Positions 9,213-64,000 of a stretch of 64,000 nt of DNA are shown here, piece by piece (positions within the stretch are counted from its first letter, which is position 1; each line of letters opens with the position of its first letter). Made by a program: the position numbers and the translations under genes. A model generated the notes under the pieces. It was not told the origin of the DNA. It made no database searches and saw only the letters and a list, made by a program, of their open reading frames with translations. Source of the stretch: a virus (lineage: Duplodnaviria > Heunggongvirae > Uroviricota > Caudoviricetes); IMG/VR virus record IMGVR_UViG_2974649431_000001, positions 92,282 through 156,281 of that record, one strand, 5' to 3'.

Positions 9213-9872
9213 ATGACCAAGTCCAGCAACATTCAACAGCGCGGCCACTGCCAGTGCTGCGGTCGCCAGCAAGCCGTGATCGCCGGCACTGGCTTCATGG
9301 CGAAGCATGGTTACACCGTCGAAAACGGATGGTTCCATGGTGTGTGCAGCGGCCACCACTATGTGCCCGTGGAAGTAAGCAGGGTGCAGCTCGACAAGCT
9401 CTGCGAAATGGTTCTCACGGAATCTGCCAGCCTGGATCTGCGCGTCAAGGACCTGCAGGAGGGCGTCGAAGTCCCGAAGGCTGTGGTAAAGCAAGTCTAC
9501 AACCCCAAGACCAGCAAGTTCGAGGATGTGTCTACTCCCTGGGCCGACGCTACTCCCTGGGCGAAGCGTGACTTCCTGGAAACCATGATCTACAGGCTGA
9601 AGTCCCGGGCCTCCGCTGGTCGCAGCTGGGTTGCCCAGATGGAACGCATCGCCGACACCTACCACGGCCAGCCTCTCATGGATGTCGTGAAGACGGAAGG
9701 CCCGGAAAAGATCGTGGTCGGCGAGCAGCGCAAGGCGCCGAGCGGCATGGTGGTGACCGTCACTGACATCCGCGGAGCACGCGTGTACTGGCAAGGCAAG
9801 CGCCCCGGCGAAGAACGCGTCATGAAGGGCTGGACGGGAAGCACGGCTTTCCGCAAGTTCGAAAAGGTCTGA
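9213..9872 (+). CDS. hypothetical Cys/His-rich protein (219 aa)
   Basis: GHCQCCGRQQ...HGVCSGHH putative metal-binding N-terminus. Strong RBS (CAGGAG) and upstream promoter. Confidence 0.55.
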   Translation: MTKSSNIQQRGHCQCCGRQQAVIAGTGFMAKHGYTVENGWFHGVCSGHHYVPVEVSRVQLDKLCEMVLTESASLDLRVKDLQEGVEVPKAVVKQVYNPKTSKFEDVSTPWADATPWAKRDFLETMIYRLKSRASAGRSWVAQMERIADTYHGQPLMDVVKTEGPEKIVVGEQRKAPSGMVVTVTDIRGARVYWQGKRPGEERVMKGWTGSTAFRKFEKV

Positions 9873-9877
9873 AAACA

Positions 9878-9909
9878 GGGAGGCTAGGACCTCCCTTTCC
9901 TGCTACAAT
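9878..9909 (+). promoter_or_regulatory. terminator hairpin plus class-B extended -10 (TGCTACAAT)
   Basis: GGGAGG-ctagga-CCTCCC + TTTCC (9878-9900), then TGCTACAAT at 9901-9909, 24 nt upstream of ATG 9933. Confidence 0.55.
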
Positions 9910-17912: not shown

Positions 17913-18269
17913 ATGAAGCACTACACACTGACCCTGATCACCCCCGTCCGCCACGACACCATCCCCGACTTCGTCCCCGTCGTGAAGGAACTCCGTAACC
18001 TCACTGGCTGGACACTGGAGAAATCCGTGTACTTCCTCCGGGGCGAACGTGCGCGCGTCGTGACGCACCAATGCGTCAACCTGGCAATCCCGGAGGGTTC
18101 TCGGCTCCGCGACATCATCAGGGTTGAAGAAGGCAGCATCGGTAAAGGCTTCGCTGCACTCAGCCTGTATGAGTTGACCAGATTCTTCGACCGCCTGGAA
18201 CAGGCCGGGTTGAATCACGACATGGGCAAGCATATCGCCCAACTCCAAGAATTCTTCAACCAACCGTAA
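17913..18269 (+). CDS. hypothetical protein (118 aa)
   Basis: Preceded by GTTATAAT and RBS GAGGAG. Confidence 0.5.
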   Translation: MKHYTLTLITPVRHDTIPDFVPVVKELRNLTGWTLEKSVYFLRGERARVVTHQCVNLAIPEGSRLRDIIRVEEGSIGKGFAALSLYELTRFFDRLEQAGLNHDMGKHIAQLQEFFNQP

Positions 18270-18281
18270 AGGCATTTCATC

Positions 18282-18677
18282 ATGAACGCTTTCCACCAAG
18301 ACGGCAGCCGTCCCGCAGCCGACCAGATTTTCGTCTTCGGTTCCAACCTGAGCGGCATTCACGGCGGCGGCGCTGCCCGTGCAGCCTACGACTACTACGG
18401 CGCCGAATGGGGCGTGCGCGGCTCTGTCGGCATGACCGGCCACTGCTACGCGATTCCCACAAAGGCTGAGGGCATCACCCACACGCTGGACCTGGATGAC
18501 ATCCGCGTGTTCATCGATGCCTTCGTGGCGTACACCAAGGCGCACCCCAACCTGAAGTTCTTCGTGACGCGCGTCGGCTGTGGCCTCGCTGGCCTGAAGG
18601 ACGAGGACATCGCACCCATGTTCAAGGGTGCCGTCAACTGCGACTTCGCCGAAGAATGGAAACCCTACCTGGAATGA
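18282..18677 (+). CDS. hypothetical protein with Gly-rich nucleotide-binding-like motif
   Basis: IFVFGSNLSGIHGGGAARAA is reminiscent of SLOG/macro-type GGG loops. Family not recognised with confidence. Confidence 0.45.
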   Translation: MNAFHQDGSRPAADQIFVFGSNLSGIHGGGAARAAYDYYGAEWGVRGSVGMTGHCYAIPTKAEGITHTLDLDDIRVFIDAFVAYTKAHPNLKFFVTRVGCGLAGLKDEDIAPMFKGAVNCDFAEEWKPYLE

Positions 18678-18788
18678 AACCCGCGCTTCTCGCCCTCGCC
18701 GTGCTCGATCTCAAAGAGCCGGCGATCACACGTGACGACCCTGACCGCGCGGTCTCGGTCGTTTTCTTGTCCATACCCATCGCAGCCA

Positions 18789-19073
18789 ATGACGCAAAAG
18801 ATGATTGAAAAGGACCTCCAGGAGCAGTTCATGGAGTACAAGATGACCGGGGCTATTCGACACGACTGGTCATTCGAGAACGTCAACCCCGTAGACGCGA
18901 TCAACATGATCTGGGGCGTCTACAGCGAATGCACGGGTCTGGACATCCGCCTCAGCGACAATGCCGAATGGATGGACTTCATCGTGCAGAAGTGCCAGAT
19001 GATGGCAATGTCGCTGCTTTTCTGCTGCCACGAAGAGATCGTCGCAGCCGTCGCAGCAAGGAGAGCCGCATGA
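18789..19073 (+). CDS. hypothetical protein
   Basis: ORF 18732..19073; start ambiguous (18732, 18789 or 18801). Confidence 0.35.
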   Translation: MTQKMIEKDLQEQFMEYKMTGAIRHDWSFENVNPVDAINMIWGVYSECTGLDIRLSDNAEWMDFIVQKCQMMAMSLLFCCHEEIVAAVAARRAA

Positions 19074-19282
19074 TCAAGCTGAGTGACTGGAACAGCAGAG
19101 GGGTCATCCTCGTCAACATCGATGACATCGTCTCAGTGAAGTCGCCCGCTAGCCCCGGCGGCTACTCTCCTATGGCCTATGTGAAGGTGAGGGGAGAGAC
19201 CCAAGACTTCGCCGTCTGCGAAAACCCTACTGACATCTATGCAGCCATCCACCGTGCCCGCGCCCTTCGAACGGGCGAATGA
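19070..19282 (+). CDS. hypothetical protein (70 aa)
   Basis: RBS AAGGAGAG; ATGA overlap with the upstream stop. Confidence 0.45.
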   Translation: MIKLSDWNSRGVILVNIDDIVSVKSPASPGGYSPMAYVKVRGETQDFAVCENPTDIYAAIHRARALRTGE

Positions 19283-19571
19283 CCCTCCCTGGGCAGACCT
19301 CGCGGGCAACCTGACCTACTCCCTTTACTGGAACTCCGGTGGAGGGCACTTCGTCCTCAGGGCTGCCCTGGACTCCGAGCATCCGGAGTGTCTCTACAAC
19401 TACATCAAGCGCGCCGGCTTCGTCCCCGAAGACTACGGGATCGAGAAGAGCCCGAGCGTGGATGACCAGAAGACCATCGACCTTTGCGCGTCGATGAGCC
19501 GGCAAGATCTCATCCAGGAGATTCTGTCTCTTCGCCGCCAGATCCAACTCATGGAGGAAGCAGGACTGTGA
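19239..19571 (+). CDS. hypothetical protein (110 aa)
   Basis: ORF; overlaps the upstream gene by 44 nt. Confidence 0.35.
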   Translation: MQPSTVPAPFERANDPPWADLAGNLTYSLYWNSGGGHFVLRAALDSEHPECLYNYIKRAGFVPEDYGIEKSPSVDDQKTIDLCASMSRQDLIQEILSLRRQIQLMEEAGL

Positions 19572-19939
19572 CCACGATACGAGAACTCGCCGCATGGGCG
19601 TCCGCAGTGGACAGCCTCGCGGCCAAGTCACTGAAGAAGGTCGAAGCCAAGATCGAGGAGACCGGCGAGAAGCTGGACCGCCTGGAACATGAGCGCCGCG
19701 AGCTCATCCGCACTGCGAAAGTCGTGCGCTGTGAAGCATGCGGGGCCGATCATTCCCTGTCGGAACTCGACGCGGTCTACCGCTACGGGTGGAGCAACGA
19801 GGCCTACAACGAGCACAGCTACCTGAGCTCCATCGAGTTCAATCTCCCCTGTTGCGGCGCTCCCTTCCGCTTCAGGGAGCCCAAGAAGTTAGAATTCTAT
19901 GCGCCGCTCTTCAAGTCGGCGTCCACCGCGGGGTACTAA
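19568..19939 (+). CDS. hypothetical Cys-containing protein (123 aa)
   Basis: GTG start overlapping the upstream TGA with RBS GGAGGAAG. CEACG...PCCG. Confidence 0.45.
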   Translation: MTTIRELAAWASAVDSLAAKSLKKVEAKIEETGEKLDRLEHERRELIRTAKVVRCEACGADHSLSELDAVYRYGWSNEAYNEHSYLSSIEFNLPCCGAPFRFREPKKLEFYAPLFKSASTAGY

Positions 19940-19969
19940 GTACCCACATCACAAAGTAGGAGTTACGAA

Positions 19970-20977
19970 GTGAGTCAAAAAGTAGGTTTCGTCATCATGC
20001 GCGCACAGCCCTTTCACGCAGGGCACGCGCACCTCGTGAAGACCGCAAGGTCGAAGTGTGACCGTCTGGTCATCATCTTGGGCAGCGCCAATCGGCCGCA
20101 GAGTGCCCGCAATCCCTGGACGTACGAAGAGCGCCGTAAGATGATCCATCTCTGGGTTGACGCCCAGGGCCTGAGCAACATCGAGTTCGCCCCGCTGAAC
20201 GATCACAGGTACAGCGATGTCACATGGCGCCAGGAAGTCCAGACGGTATTCGACGAGCTGTCATTTCCCAGCGACATACTCATCCTCTTCGGCCACAGCA
20301 AGGAGGGCAACGATTACCTAGAATGGTTCCCGGAAGTGAACTATGTCGAGGTGGCCGCTGAGCCTGGAATGGAAACGCTGTGCGCGACTGACCTGCGGCG
20401 TCAAATGTGGGACCAGGGGTGCCTGCCATCCGAAGCAGCCGCAGACATGCAGTATTTCGAGGACGAGCGTGCGAGGTTCTCCGACTACCCCTACCCCGAA
20501 ACCCTGAACTTCAACTGCGCCGACGCCATCGTCGAATGCGATGGCCACGTCGCGCTCATCCATCGCGGTGGTTCGCCGGGCAAGGGGAATTGGGCGCTTC
20601 CCGGCGGCTTCAAGAACCGCAACGAGACATTCCTGGACTGCGCCATCCGAGAGCTGCGCGAGGAAGTGAACATCCGGGTACCCGAAAAGGTGCTGCGCGG
20701 CTCCATCGTCAGCACCAAGCTGTTCGACTCCCCCGATCGGGGCGAGGGCATTCCCCGCAACACCCTGGCCGTCCACATCCGCATCACCCGTGATGCCAAC
20801 GGCGACCTCCCCCGCATTTCTCCCGGCGACGACGCCATGAAGGCCACCTGGGTGAGCATATACTCGGCCATGAATGAACTGGCGATGCACGACGATCACC
20901 AGGACATCCTTTCCGTCATGTTGGGCACCTCCCCCGTGCCTGCAATCTTCAACCCCCGTTTCCAACCCAAGCGTTAA
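19970..20977 (+). CDS. natV: bifunctional NMN adenylyltransferase / Nudix hydrolase (NadM-Nudix type)
   Basis: N-terminal cytidylyltransferase HxGH motif (FHAGHAHLV). C-terminal Nudix box GNWALPGGFKNRNETFLDCAIRELREEVNI. GTG start with RBS AAGTAGGAG. Confidence 0.85.
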   Translation: MSQKVGFVIMRAQPFHAGHAHLVKTARSKCDRLVIILGSANRPQSARNPWTYEERRKMIHLWVDAQGLSNIEFAPLNDHRYSDVTWRQEVQTVFDELSFPSDILILFGHSKEGNDYLEWFPEVNYVEVAAEPGMETLCATDLRRQMWDQGCLPSEAAADMQYFEDERARFSDYPYPETLNFNCADAIVECDGHVALIHRGGSPGKGNWALPGGFKNRNETFLDCAIRELREEVNIRVPEKVLRGSIVSTKLFDSPDRGEGIPRNTLAVHIRITRDANGDLPRISPGDDAMKATWVSIYSAMNELAMHDDHQDILSVMLGTSPVPAIFNPRFQPKR

Positions 20978-20990
20978 GAAGGAGCTTCTC

Positions 20991-22382
20991 ATGAACGCAG
21001 ATATCATGTCTTCCATTCTCTTCAACACGGACAGCTACAAGGTGTCCATGTGGAAGCAGTACCCCGCGAACACCGAGTTCGTCTACAGCTACATCGAAGC
21101 GCGCGGCGGCCCCGTCGATCACACCATCTGGTTCGGTCTCCAGGCATTCATCAACCAGTACCTGCGGCGTCCGATCACGCAGTCGGAAATCGACCTCGCG
21201 GACAAGTTCTGGACGGCGCACGGCGAGCCCTTCAACCGCGAAGGCTGGGAGCACATCCTCCGCGTCCACCGCGGCTACCTGCCGATCCGCATCAAGCAGA
21301 TCCCCGAAGGCGAACGCGTCCCCGTGAAGCACGTACTCGCGACCATCGAGAACACCGATCCCAAGGTGCCATGGCTGACCACCTGGGTGGAGACCGCTGC
21401 GCTGCGCGCCGCCTGGTACGGCACCAACGTAGCAACGATCAGCTTCGAGATCAAGCGGATCATCAAGGACTACCTGGAGCGCAGCGGCACGCCTGAAGAA
21501 CTGGGCTTCAAGCTGCATGACTTCGGCGCTCGCGGCGCCAACAGTCTGGAAAGCTCCGGCATCGGCGGCGCCGCTCACCTCGTGAACTTCATGGGGACGG
21601 ACAACGTTTCCGGCATCATCCACGCAGCCCAGCACTACGGCGCCGACCTGTTCACCACGGGCTTCAGCATCCCGGCAGCAGAGCACAGCACGATCACCAG
21701 CTGGGGTCGCGAGCACGAGAAGGACGCCTACGCGAACATGCTGGAACAGTTCTCCGGACCCGGAAAGATCTTCGCCTGTGTGAGCGACAGCTACAACATC
21801 TACGAGGCTGTTGACATGTGGGGCGCCATGCGGGATCGGATCGTGGAACTCGGCGGCACGCTCGTCGTCCGCCCGGACAGCGGCGACCCCGTCCAAGTGC
21901 TGCGCCGGCTCATGGCCATGCTGGACCGCTACTTCGGCCACACGCAGAACGAGAAGGGCTACAAGGTTCTGAACAACGTGCGCGTCATCTGGGGCGACGG
22001 CATCAACCAGGCCAGCATCAGGTCGATCTACGGCTGGCTCGTGGACGTGGAAGGCTGGTCCGCTGACAACTTCGCGTTCGGCATGGGAGGCGCGCTGCTG
22101 CAACAGCATGACCGGGACACGTTCAAGTTCGCCATGAAGGCGAGCGCAGCGTTCATCGACGGCAAGTGGGTGGAGGTCTTCAAGGACCCCGTTACCGACA
22201 GCGGAAAGGCCAGCAAGCGTGGTCGCGTGACGACCGTGCTGGGCGTCGATGGCTACCGCAACGCCGTGCAGGACTGGGAGCCGGAGGCACTGCAAACCGT
22301 CTACGAAGACGGCATGCTCATCGGTCTCCAGAACTTCAAGAACGTTCGCATTCGTGCTGAGAAGGCGCTCAACGCCGCATAG
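20991..22382 (+). CDS. nadV: nicotinamide phosphoribosyltransferase (Nampt)
   Basis: Full-length similarity to Nampt/NadV (SYKVSMWKQYP, HDFGARG, VSDSYN, VVRPDSGDP). RBS AAGAAGGAG. Confidence 0.9.
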   Translation: MNADIMSSILFNTDSYKVSMWKQYPANTEFVYSYIEARGGPVDHTIWFGLQAFINQYLRRPITQSEIDLADKFWTAHGEPFNREGWEHILRVHRGYLPIRIKQIPEGERVPVKHVLATIENTDPKVPWLTTWVETAALRAAWYGTNVATISFEIKRIIKDYLERSGTPEELGFKLHDFGARGANSLESSGIGGAAHLVNFMGTDNVSGIIHAAQHYGADLFTTGFSIPAAEHSTITSWGREHEKDAYANMLEQFSGPGKIFACVSDSYNIYEAVDMWGAMRDRIVELGGTLVVRPDSGDPVQVLRRLMAMLDRYFGHTQNEKGYKVLNNVRVIWGDGINQASIRSIYGWLVDVEGWSADNFAFGMGGALLQQHDRDTFKFAMKASAAFIDGKWVEVFKDPVTDSGKASKRGRVTTVLGVDGYRNAVQDWEPEALQTVYEDGMLIGLQNFKNVRIRAEKALNAA

Positions 22383-22423
22383 ATGTTGGTAGTTCGGCGT
22401 TTCGGACTACATCTATAACTAAG

Positions 22424-22446
22424 AACCCGCTACGGCGGGTTCAGTT
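22424..22446 (+). terminator. hairpin after nadV (possible terminator)
   Basis: Perfect 8-bp stem GAACCCGC-tac-GCGGGTTC followed by AGTTCTAT. Confidence 0.4.
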
Positions 22447-22481
22447 CTATAAGTACAGCATCAAACGAATTGAGGCTGGAC

Positions 22482-23030
22482 ATGACAGAAGAGAAGAACT
22501 ACGTCACTCTGCTCACGGAGCGAGCAGGCACGATGGGAGCGATCAAAGCCCGTGACGTCCAAAAGATGCTGGCAAAATGCGGGGCTGGAGAGAACTCGCA
22601 GGCGACCTCCAAGACGGTGCAGATCAACGGGAACGCCGACTATACGAAGGCCGCCAACCCTGCTGCACTCGCGAAGCTCACGAATGACAGCGTTGCCGGT
22701 GTCGTCGTGTTCTGGAATGAAGAAGAGGTGATGGCGCGCACCTGTGATGGCGTCACGTGGAGCGTACACAGCTCTCCCATCGAGTTCCCGGGCTTCCTGA
22801 CCACCATGGTCATCCACAAGGACGTCACCCGGAAGGAAATCTCCAGTTTCCGTGACATGGCTGCTACGGCACCTGTCCGCAAGATCATCGTGAACGCAAT
22901 CCGCACCATCCGTGCGAACACCGACAAGATCGAATCGCAGATCAACGCAGGCGACCTGAGCCAACTGCAGACGCTGTGCGCTGCTCTCCGAGACAGCGTC
23001 AGTGCCATCGAAGCTGCTGCTAAGAAGTGA
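22482..23030 (+). CDS. hypothetical protein (182 aa)
   Basis: ORF; ATG at 22482 after GAGG. Confidence 0.5.
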   Translation: MTEEKNYVTLLTERAGTMGAIKARDVQKMLAKCGAGENSQATSKTVQINGNADYTKAANPAALAKLTNDSVAGVVVFWNEEEVMARTCDGVTWSVHSSPIEFPGFLTTMVIHKDVTRKEISSFRDMAATAPVRKIIVNAIRTIRANTDKIESQINAGDLSQLQTLCAALRDSVSAIEAAAKK

Positions 23031-23032
23031 AT

Positions 23033-23620
23033 ATGCACATCCCCAACGAAGACAACGGTATGGGGAAGCGTCGTCATGCGATGCCCCAGATCAAGGACTT
23101 TGACGCCTTCATGAAGGACCTGGAGGCCAACGACATTGCTGTCGTGACCATCAGCGTGGATCCTGAGGAGCTGAAGCCCACCCAGGGCAACTTCAATGAA
23201 GCCAAGGTCAAAGCCATGCTCGCCGACAAGAGCTGGTCAAAGAACCCCATTGTCTCCAGCGACGACGATTTCGTCCTGGATGGTCATCACCGTTGGTTGG
23301 CCGCTGCCAACGCGAAACAGTTCATCAAGAGCCGCGTAGTCGACCTTCCCATCGACGAGCTCCTGGACTTCGTGAAGGGCAAGCCCTACGTGGAGACCAA
23401 GGCGCTGCACGAGGACATGCGGGACAATCTCAGCCGGATCCAAGACTACTACGCGCGCATCGGTCGCGGCGAAGGTGGCGAGAGCCTCGTGAAGATGCTC
23501 ACCCAAGTGAACTCCGTGCGAGAAGCTGTCCAATCCAACCACCCTGACGTGAAAAAGAATCGAGCAGTCATTATGAGAAAACTCCAGGAAGTCATGAGCC
23601 TTTGCGGGGTGCCAGCGTGA
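23033..23620 (+). CDS. ParB/Srx-like nuclease domain protein
   Basis: LKPTQ and DGHHR motifs of the ParB N-terminal / sulfiredoxin-like fold. Confidence 0.45.
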   Translation: MHIPNEDNGMGKRRHAMPQIKDFDAFMKDLEANDIAVVTISVDPEELKPTQGNFNEAKVKAMLADKSWSKNPIVSSDDDFVLDGHHRWLAAANAKQFIKSRVVDLPIDELLDFVKGKPYVETKALHEDMRDNLSRIQDYYARIGRGEGGESLVKMLTQVNSVREAVQSNHPDVKKNRAVIMRKLQEVMSLCGVPA

Positions 23621-25143
23621 GCGTTTGGTTCGGCAATGGCCGCCTCGCGGGCGTCACGAAAGTCGACGGCGCAGCGACTGGCGGTGTCACCGTTGAGGTC
23701 TTCCACAAGGCTAGCGGAGTGCGCGTAGCGTCCGTGGTTAGCAACACACCCACCGGCCAGTTTGAAGTCTTGGGGCTCAACCCAGCAGAGACATTCGACT
23801 TGGTGAGCAAAGCGCCAGGAAAAACTGCTGCGGTCAGTGACCTTCGGGAACCCGTCGCCTACCTCGATCCCTTGCAGGAGTTCGTGGTCGCGCAAGTCCA
23901 GTTCGTCCCCGGTTATGGGCACATGGAAATCGGAGGCGCTGTGCGCGTCGGTGAGGCTACCACTACTGCCAAGGGGCTGTTCCACCGGGTAGACGACGGC
24001 GGACCATTCCCGGGTGTCGGAGCAATGCTCAGGGCGAACAGGACAACAGGCGACTACACCCACAACTGGATCGAAGGGCCAGGCGTTGCATGCGGTACCG
24101 CGGACTTCTGCGCTGAGACCTACGTGCGACTCCACAATGGCGGCGCCACCCCGTTGAACGACGTCTACCCTCGAATTTTCCAGTTCGGTTCTACTCAAGG
24201 AACGCGAGGATGGGTGTTGGCGCTCAACATGGACAAGCGAGCGCCCAACATGATCCTGGAAACCACCCAGAATGGTTCCTACATGGGCGGCCTCATCGCA
24301 TCGCTGGGCCAAATCCCAAACAACCGCTGGGTGCATGTCGCCGTGACGCGTCAAGGGACGACGTGGAGAGTCTTCGTGGACGGCGCTCTCCGAGGATCAG
24401 CCGACTATGCGTTCGATTATGCGAACACTTCCTTCTACAACAACCGCATTGGGCTGGGGTGCAACGCGAACAGCAGCGCATCAAACGAGACAGCAAACGC
24501 CGACTTTGCGATGTTTCGCTACACCGTCGGCAATGCTCGCTACACCTCCGCGTTCACGCCACCCACACCCTATGCGATGCCGGAACGCGTCTACTCCAAG
24601 TGGAGTGGCGACAATGACAGCAACTATGCAGACGTCGGCGAGCCCGTTACGGTAGCCATCGTCAATCCCTCGATCGCTCGGGGTGGATTTGAGCAGTGGG
24701 TGCGCGCCGATCAACCCAAGTCCTCGGGCAAGTGGTACTGGGAAGTGAAGGTGCTCGAATCGACTTCGAAGAGCCTGTTCTTGGGCGTCTGCGATGCCGA
24801 CCAAGGCACGCGCGCATCGCTGGGATACCTAGCCTGGGTTTACGTCGCAAGCGGAAGTTCCTACAATGGGCCTTTGTCACAGCAGAGCACGTATGGCGCG
24901 GCCTATGACAACAACGACGTCATAGGGTTTGCGCTTGACATTGACGCAGGAACGCTGGAGTGTTTCAAGAACGGGGTCAGCCAGGGCATCATGGCGTCCA
25001 ATATCACGGGCACAGTCACGCCGATGTTCGCAGGGATGACTTTCAACTATTCCTTCTCAGCAGTCCAAGCCAACTTCGGAGAGACGCCCTTTGCGTACAG
25101 CCCTCCGTCGGGTTTCAACTCTGGGTGGTACCGCGAACTTTGA
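23617..25143 (+). CDS. ConA-like lectin (LamG) + SPRY domain protein
   Basis: WVHVAVTRQGTTWRVFVDGAL (LamG-like). GKWYWEVKV...LGVC...GYLAWVYVASG...DVIGFALDIDAGTLECFKNG (SPRY core). GTG start overlaps the upstream TGA. Confidence 0.6.
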   Translation: MSVWFGNGRLAGVTKVDGAATGGVTVEVFHKASGVRVASVVSNTPTGQFEVLGLNPAETFDLVSKAPGKTAAVSDLREPVAYLDPLQEFVVAQVQFVPGYGHMEIGGAVRVGEATTTAKGLFHRVDDGGPFPGVGAMLRANRTTGDYTHNWIEGPGVACGTADFCAETYVRLHNGGATPLNDVYPRIFQFGSTQGTRGWVLALNMDKRAPNMILETTQNGSYMGGLIASLGQIPNNRWVHVAVTRQGTTWRVFVDGALRGSADYAFDYANTSFYNNRIGLGCNANSSASNETANADFAMFRYTVGNARYTSAFTPPTPYAMPERVYSKWSGDNDSNYADVGEPVTVAIVNPSIARGGFEQWVRADQPKSSGKWYWEVKVLESTSKSLFLGVCDADQGTRASLGYLAWVYVASGSSYNGPLSQQSTYGAAYDNNDVIGFALDIDAGTLECFKNGVSQGIMASNITGTVTPMFAGMTFNYSFSAVQANFGETPFAYSPPSGFNSGWYREL

Positions 25144-63931: not shown

Positions 63932-64000
63932 GCGGAGTAGCTCAGTTGGTTAGAGCGCCGGACTCATAATCCGGAGGTCGCAGGTTCGAGTCCTGCCTAC
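63932..64000 (+). tRNA. tRNA (anticodon CAT; Met or lysidine-modified Ile2), truncated at the window edge
   Basis: D-arm TAGCTCAGTTGGTTAGAGC. Anticodon stem-loop CCGGA-CTCATAA-TCCGG. Variable loop AGGTC. T-arm GCAGG-TTCGAGT-CCTGC. 3' acceptor strand cut after CTAC. GCTACAAT box 20 nt upstream. Confidence 0.8.

Follow-up and report, generated by a model that had tools for sequence, protein, structure and literature searches.

A probable NARP2-type NAD+ salvage cassette in the genome of Acidovorax phage ACP17

Here we report the analysis of two adjacent genes in a 64,000-nucleotide stretch of DNA from a tailed phage (IMG/VR record IMGVR_UViG_2974649431_000001; the whole stretch is called the window below), which very probably constitute a two-gene, NARP2-type NAD+ salvage cassette of Acidovorax phage ACP17. 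Gene 1 encodes a nicotinamide mononucleotide (NMN) adenylyltransferase (NMNAT) joined to a Nudix domain, and gene 2 encodes a nicotinamide phosphoribosyltransferase (Nampt). The window is the final 64,000 bp of the ACP17 record, window positions being record positions minus 92,281, and the 2,413-bp region of the gene pair is 100% identical to record positions 112251-114663 of KY979132.2. The ACP17 genome, deposited as KY979132.2 and NC_041997.1, comprises 156,281 bp, and the host is Acidovorax citrulli. Both records already annotate gene 1 as "NMN adenylyltransferase NUDIX hydrolase" (or cytidyltransferase) and gene 2 as "nicotinamide phosphoribosyltransferase".

In the proposed pathway, Nampt (20991-22382) would condense nicotinamide with host-made phosphoribosyl pyrophosphate (PRPP) to form NMN, which the N-terminal NMNAT domain of the upstream protein (19970-20977) would adenylylate with ATP to yield NAD+. 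The C-terminal Nudix domain of the latter protein is predicted to cleave ADP-ribose (or NAD(H)) as an active pyrophosphatase, like the characterized NadM-Nudix enzymes. This logic of rebuilding NAD+ from nicotinamide via NMN was put forward in the original prediction, made from the DNA letters of the window, and is upheld by the gene identities and the intact catalytic residues described here.

Results

Identification of the gene pair

Both genes were found at the predicted positions, on the same strand and 13 nt apart. The elements of the locus are as follows.

19957-19962, + strand: Shine-Dalgarno-like TAGGAG of gene 1, 7 nt 5' of the GTG start, read from the sequence
19970-20977, + strand: gene 1, NMN adenylyltransferase/Nudix (NadM-Nudix, NatV-like), GTG start, 335 aa, from the list of open reading frames (ORFs)
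20979-20984, + strand: Shine-Dalgarno AAGGAG of gene 2, within the 13-nt spacer, 6 nt 5' of the ATG
20991-22382, + strand: gene 2, Nampt (NadV), gp174, 463 aa, likely start ATG 20991, as in GenBank
22389-22410, + strand: hairpin 1, 8 bp including one G-U pair, 6-nt loop, minimum free energy (MFE) fold
22423-22442, + strand: hairpin 2, GAACCCGC-TACG-GCGGGTTC, 8 bp with 6 G-C pairs, MFE fold

The product of gene 2 matches two Pfam families, NAMPT_N (PF18127; 6.2e-25, 87.8 bits against a cut-off of 25, thus above the curated threshold) and NAPRTase (PF04095; 2.1e-52, 178.7 bits against a cut-off of 20.8), as well as the NCBIfam model NF006629 (567.8 bits against a cut-off of 405) and PHROG 448 (3e-158). 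Its best relatives of solved structure are the Nampts of Xanthomonas campestris (7yqo, 2.2e-150) and mouse (2gvl, 5.5e-108). The vibriophage KVP40 proteins, against which an alignment had been proposed as a check, are clear homologues of both products: KVP40 NadV is 43% identical to the gene 2 protein (E 1e-126), and KVP40 NatV is 36% identical to the gene 1 protein (E 2e-67) over residues 9-319, which span both domains. The alignments of Nampt homologues begin at residues 5-8 of the ACP17 protein. The Nampt domains, and the active-site residues in the native numbering of mouse Nampt 2gvl, map as follows.

21015-21293, + strand: NAMPT_N domain, aa 9-101
21507-22244, + strand: NAPRTase catalytic domain, aa 173-418
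2gvl D16, Y18, F193, R196, D219, H247: ACP17 D14, Y16, F178, R181, D204, H232
2gvl R311, D313, G353, D354, G383: ACP17 R294, D296, G335, D336, G366
2gvl G384, R392, K400, K415, K423: ACP17 G367, R375, K383, K398, K406

All 16 of the mapped active-site residues, chosen in the light of the structural literature on Nampt, are identical in ACP17. They include D204, the counterpart of D219 of human Nampt, the Asp that selects nicotinamide, and H232, the counterpart of the autophosphorylated histidine H247. A catalytic histidine of Nampt is noted in PMC12774641, and R311 is essential according to the methods of Osterman et al. (bioRxiv 10.1101/2024.02.11.579819).

The family models leave room for another assignment of gene 2, as a nicotinate phosphoribosyltransferase, in which case the pathway would depend on an NAD synthetase, and nicotinamide would not be recycled directly. 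The title of NF006629 is indeed 'nicotinate phosphoribosyltransferase', and several homologues in phage records are named thus, but the protein carries the NAMPT_N domain, keeps the Asp equivalent to human D219, and scores from about 1e-150 to 1e-108 against biochemically defined Nampts compared with merely 1.2e-4 against the PncB-type model NF006696. The sole 'NAD synthetase' annotated in ACP17 (gp020, record 9483-9905, - strand), which was considered as a third pathway gene, is a misannotated SegE-type GIY-YIG homing endonuclease (PF19835, 1.2e-36). We therefore reject the nicotinate assignment as highly implausible and retain Nampt.

The gene 1 protein matches the Pfam families NUDIX (3.1e-14, 53.6 bits against a cut-off of 21.1) and CTP_transf_like (2.1e-10), as well as PHROG 395 (1.1e-63), and it aligns with both domains of the NadM-Nudix structures from Synechocystis (2qjo, 2.7e-48) and Francisella (2qjt, 1e-36). 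Its domains and motifs are listed below; HxGH, CATDLR and a Nudix box with REx2EE are all intact, and in gene 1, as in gene 2, every catalytic motif that could be mapped is preserved.

19982-20410, + strand: NMNAT domain, about aa 5-147
20015-20026, + strand: HxGH motif, HAGH, aa 16-19, aligned to the 2qjo and 2qjt NMNAT domains
aa 138-143, + strand: ISSTxxR-like motif, CATDLR
20495-20923, + strand: Nudix domain, about aa 176-318
20606-20674, + strand: Nudix box GFKNRNETFLDCAIRELREEVNI, aa 213-235, G213-x5-E-x7-R228-E-L-R-E232-E233

The Nudix half might also be catalytically dead and serve only to sense ADP-ribose (ADPR) or to regulate, as in NrtR, an idea suggested by a weak match to the NrtR repressor model (7.9e-06) and by an Asn in place of the penultimate Gly of the Nudix box. 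However, the G-x5-E-x7-RE-U-x-EE core is intact with all catalytic glutamates, the Synechocystis, Francisella and KVP40 enzymes, which are active, have Thr at the same Gly position, and gene 1 has no DNA-binding domain. A dead Nudix half is thus very unlikely, and we keep to the predicted active pyrophosphatase.

The deposited start of the NMNAT-Nudix gene is ATG 19997 (record 112278) in both GenBank and RefSeq. The GTG at 19970 lengthens the protein from 326 to 335 aa; the nine extra residues (MSQKVGFVI) correspond in alignments to the first beta-strand ahead of HxGH, both in 2qjo and in archaeal NMNAT models. Because this GTG has a Shine-Dalgarno sequence of its own and because the nine residues align with that strand, it appears to be the better start, and the deposited one probably lies 27 nt too far downstream.

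Assignment to NARP2

Two phage pathways employ enzymes of this family: in NARP1, a nicotinamide-using enzyme called Namat works with Adps on ADPR-pyrophosphate (ADPR-PP), whereas NARP2 pairs a true Nampt, acting on PRPP, with Nmnat (Osterman et al., bioRxiv 10.1101/2024.02.11.579819). Three independent tests, namely the partner genes, a published listing and the selectivity-clamp residues, place the ACP17 cassette in NARP2. The Nmnat partner is present in the same phage genome as the adjacent upstream gene, and no Adps or Prs homologue was found in the whole 156-kb ACP17 genome by tblastn with the Adps proteins of Bas63 and SPbetaL1 (best E 0.064), nor is a Prs or Adps annotated in the ACP17 records. 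Because such a homologue is lacking in the genome, we read the route as the PRPP-dependent one, and with the NARP2 assignment it follows that PRPP must come from the host. Table S2 of Osterman et al. lists KY979132_00179, which has the exact sequence of ACP17 Nampt, as "Nmnat-associated". Finally, Namat owes its specificity to two aromatic residues of a "selectivity-clamp helix", which were exchanged for the residues of Nampt in the mutations F392G and Y396K (PMC12774641). In the alignment columns that we assigned to the clamp from the identities of those mutants, ACP17 has A368 and Q372 and KVP40 has G and Q, as opposed to W/F or Y/Y in two Adps-associated Namats of Table S2.

These results bear directly on whether gene 2 could be a NARP1-type Namat, which would join nicotinamide to ADPR-PP and form NAD+ directly. 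Namat is a homologue of Nampt with an identical set of Pfam domains, and KVP40 Nampt is weakly active on ADPR-PP (Osterman et al.). Against this stand the genome without an Adps or Prs homologue, the Nmnat neighbor and the placement of the gene in the Nmnat-associated clade, the non-aromatic A368 and Q372, and the best structural relatives, all of them true Nampts. Within one alignment, the protein is 45% identical to KVP40 Nampt but 28-34% identical to the two Adps-associated Namats. A Namat identity of gene 2 is accordingly rejected as extremely unlikely, leaving the NARP2 pair of NMNAT and Nampt.

Gene organization and downstream hairpins

The TAA stop codon of gene 1 (20975-20977) is followed by 13 nt (GAAGGAGCTTCTC) and then by the Nampt ATG at 20991. 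The original prediction had inferred translational coupling from this arrangement; the 13-nt gap and the separate Shine-Dalgarno sequence of gene 2 are both present, but a short gap with an independent Shine-Dalgarno sequence does not demonstrate coupling itself. The two genes are probably co-transcribed with the upstream + strand genes.

The hairpin claimed to follow the gene pair is real and is accompanied by a second one, both located in the 99-nt spacer between Nampt and the next gene (ATG 22482). Hairpin 1 can be extended by an outer pairing of 22379-22384 with 22411-22416, which overlaps the TAG stop codon, as read from the sequence. The 91-nt segment 22380-22470 folds with -34.8 kcal/mol (z = -5.98), and none of 200 shuffled sequences was as stable. 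The sequence of hairpin 2 occurs once in the window. On the + strand it is not followed by a T-run, and the terminator scan flagged the - strand only; terminator-like sites were not enriched over shuffles (4 found against 5.3 expected). A canonical intrinsic terminator was therefore rejected as a reading of hairpin 2, although the hairpin may still act in termination.

Comparison with known NAD+ salvage systems

The closest characterized system is the NARP2 pair of KVP40, NadV and NatV, which comprises the same two proteins with the same domain architectures and catalytic motifs and has no Adps partner. The genomic arrangement is different: the KVP40 genes natV (94507-95532) and nadV (138214-139707) are not adjacent but separated by 42.7 kb, compared with 13 nt in ACP17. 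KVP40 further possesses nadR (KVP40.0211), Sir2 (KVP40.0043) and a second, short gene of the PF04095 family (KVP40.0259), 3.2 kb upstream of nadV, none of which has an annotated counterpart in ACP17. In phi-ST2, the NMNAT and Nampt genes are also about 41 kb apart, unlike those of ACP17.

Homologues of NMNAT-Nudix were detected in 477 phage records and those of Nampt/Namat in 2,019. The order of NMNAT followed directly by Nampt is shared by Rhizobium phage B1VFA, Stenotrophomonas phage DLP_6, Xanthomonas phage LucasX and Burkholderia phage BcepSaruman, as well as by the Menderavirus relatives of ACP17 (PMC9025141).

Both ACP17 proteins are homologous over their full length to products of bacterial nadM-nadV salvage genes, as exemplified by Synechocystis slr0787, Francisella NadM-Nudix and Xanthomonas campestris Nampt. 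At seven of the loci of the 30 closest bacterial Nampts, a full-length NadM-Nudix gene precedes Nampt on the same strand within 4 kb, and because of this shared gene order the cassette is regarded as having the ordinary layout of a bacterial salvage operon. The ACP17 copy differs from these loci in being phage-borne, and the closest bacterial Nampt is 56-59% identical. Recent capture from the host was considered and rejected, since the 30 closest bacterial Nampts are 41-59% identical and none is from Acidovorax, and since the GC content of the cassette (0.60-0.62) and its GC at third codon positions (GC3, 0.78-0.87) resemble those of the neighboring phage genes.

NARP1, like the pathway proposed for ACP17, rebuilds NAD+ from the products of NADases, and Namat shares the catalytic core of Nampt. 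It differs in using ADPR-PP made by Adps, whereas ACP17 lacks Adps and the aromatic clamp residues, and its route needs a separate adenylylation step. In NARP3, which combines a NadR-like RNK-NMNAT protein with PnuC (PMC13464706), an NMNAT-domain enzyme likewise finishes NAD+ and defense is countered by NAD+ restoration. There, however, imported nicotinamide riboside is the starting material, and a kinase domain takes the place of Nudix; searches of Pfam and NCBIfam found neither PnuC nor an RNK domain in the ACP17 cassette proteins.

Neighboring genes

Immediately upstream of the cassette lies an ORF that is annotated in neither ACP17 record and falls within an annotation 'gap' of 425 nt in both.

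19568-19939, + strand: unannotated ORF, 123 codons; starts at a GTG that shares bases with the preceding TGA (GTGA), GGAGGA lying 9 nt upstream

Its GC content by codon position (0.58/0.45/0.81) is like that of the flanking genes, and its product combines a coiled-coil-like N-terminus with a CxxC...CC motif. Neither a homologue in phage records beyond ACP17 nor an informative family match was found for it. From these features it is probably a real gene that the annotation missed.

A search for extra NAD-related genes among the neighboring ORFs gave no Pfam match. The 131-aa product of 18282-18677 (+ strand) contains a FVFGSNLSGIHGGGAARAA motif and falls in A1S_2505, a family of non-structural proteins of phages (NF049995, 8.9e-38; phrog_2072); it has no Pfam or PDB match, and the ORFs 19239-19571 and 22482-23030 have no informative matches. 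Downstream, the gene at 23027-23620 (+ strand) is annotated as 'DarB-like antirestriction protein' and has a DGHHRW (ParB/sulfiredoxin-like) motif. Within phrog_3041 'cytidyltransferase', its product matches the C-terminal third (5.8e-20) and the NMNAT domain of gene 1 matches the N-terminal part (2.3e-07). Since a single PHROG matches both proteins, an NMNAT domain and a DarB-like domain may be fused in one protein in some phages.

At its far end, the window carries a tRNA-Met(CAT) at 63934-64000 that extends past the end of the linear record; ARAGORN can complete it with the record's first 4 bases only, and two acceptor-stem mismatches remain. Within record positions 1-70, the first ~65 bases are themselves tRNA-like, with the anticodon loop CTTTGGGAG, likely Pro-TGG, and the 5' end absent. 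No tRNA features are annotated at the record start (1-100000) or end (110000-156281). Because partial tRNAs are found at both record ends, the deposited ACP17 genome seems to have been cut open within a tRNA cluster and may also have been trimmed there.

Discussion

The NadV and NatV proteins of KVP40 have reportedly been shown, by biochemical means, to possess their enzymatic activities by Lee and coworkers in 2017. The use of such enzymes against NADases was proposed from bioinformatics by Iyer et al. 2022 (PMC9503650). In the experiments of Osterman et al. (bioRxiv 10.1101/2024.02.11.579819), co-expression of the KVP40 pair abolished the defense conferred by type I Thoeris and DSR2, and a knock-in phage with the KVP40 genes overcame Thoeris and raised NAD+. 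The original prediction had cast the ACP17 genes as a counter to a broader set of NAD+-depleting defenses, including SIR2 and SEFIR-type systems. The part concerning type I Thoeris and DSR2 is well founded in the KVP40 pair, but NARP2 was tested against Thoeris and DSR2 only, and the wider list (SIR2-HerA, SEFIR and DSR1) was shown for NARP1 (Osterman et al.). For ACP17, the enzyme activities, an increase of NAD+ in infection and an escape from type I Thoeris or DSR2-like defenses would be expected from homologues only.

Several observations weigh against reading the two genes as a NARP2 cassette directed at host defense. A search for sigma-70-like promoters in 18000-24000 returned 0 sites. 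Gene 1 falls below the cut-offs of all seven NCBIfam PRK05379 NadM-Nudix equivalog models, which represent narrow bacterial subgroups (the best score is 224.1 against 397 bits); from its alignments over both domains we regard it as a divergent, phage-encoded NadM-Nudix protein, outside any curated bacterial subgroup. NatV contacts NAD through D78, Y79 and W85 (PMC13464706), and at these positions D78 and W86 are conserved in ACP17, but the second NMN-contact position is H79 in ACP17 as opposed to Y79 in NatV. Finally, NARP2 raises NAD+ even without a defense system (Osterman et al.), so the selective advantage could lie in general metabolism.

The last point leads to the possibility, which we consider somewhat unlikely, that the cassette serves chiefly as an auxiliary metabolic module and, in whatever host, enlarges the NAD(P) pool from which the phage makes nucleotides and replicates, with defense evasion as a side benefit or irrelevant. 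The two roles are compatible and not mutually exclusive. A metabolic role was the interpretation before 2024 (Lee et al. 2017, as cited in PMC9025141), and NadV is enriched among medium-sized and jumbo phages. Moreover, ACP17 encodes a class Ia ribonucleotide reductase, ThyX, a glutaredoxin-like protein and deoxynucleoside monophosphate kinases, which draw on reduced pyridine nucleotides. On the other hand, the ACP17 DNA ligase is of the ATP-dependent T4 gp30 type and neither an ADP-ribosyltransferase nor Sir2 is annotated in ACP17, so no obvious large consumer of NAD+ is encoded by the phage, and anti-defense activity has been shown directly for the homologous KVP40 pair. We thus favor a NARP2 cassette, whose metabolic benefit may come in addition.

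A speculative extension of the NARP2 reading, which we hold to be doubtful, is that the Nudix domain acts as an integral recycling step beyond being a brake on NAD+. In this scheme, the Nudix domain would hydrolyze the ADP-ribose released by NADases to AMP and ribose-5-phosphate, and the host Prs would convert the latter into PRPP for Nampt. If true, the tightly linked cassette would recover the two halves into which NAD+ is cleaved and thereby make up for the PRPP expense ascribed to NARP2. As a weaker variant, the Nudix domain may also degrade ADPR-derived immune signals. Independently of this scheme, the ORF 19568-19939 might act as an accessory or regulatory partner of the cassette.

The pathway, its counter-defense role and the NARP2 membership of the ACP17 gene have all been published, and the finding, although correct, is therefore already known. 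It brings no new biology, and its increments are at the level of annotation, namely the start codon of the NMNAT gene and one probable missed gene (19568-19939), with the separation of natV and nadV in KVP40 as a minor addition. For the phage itself, the analysis means that ACP17, a phage of a plant pathogen known from biocontrol studies, carries an intact NARP2 module, which may bear on its host range with respect to strains possessing NAD+-depleting immunity.

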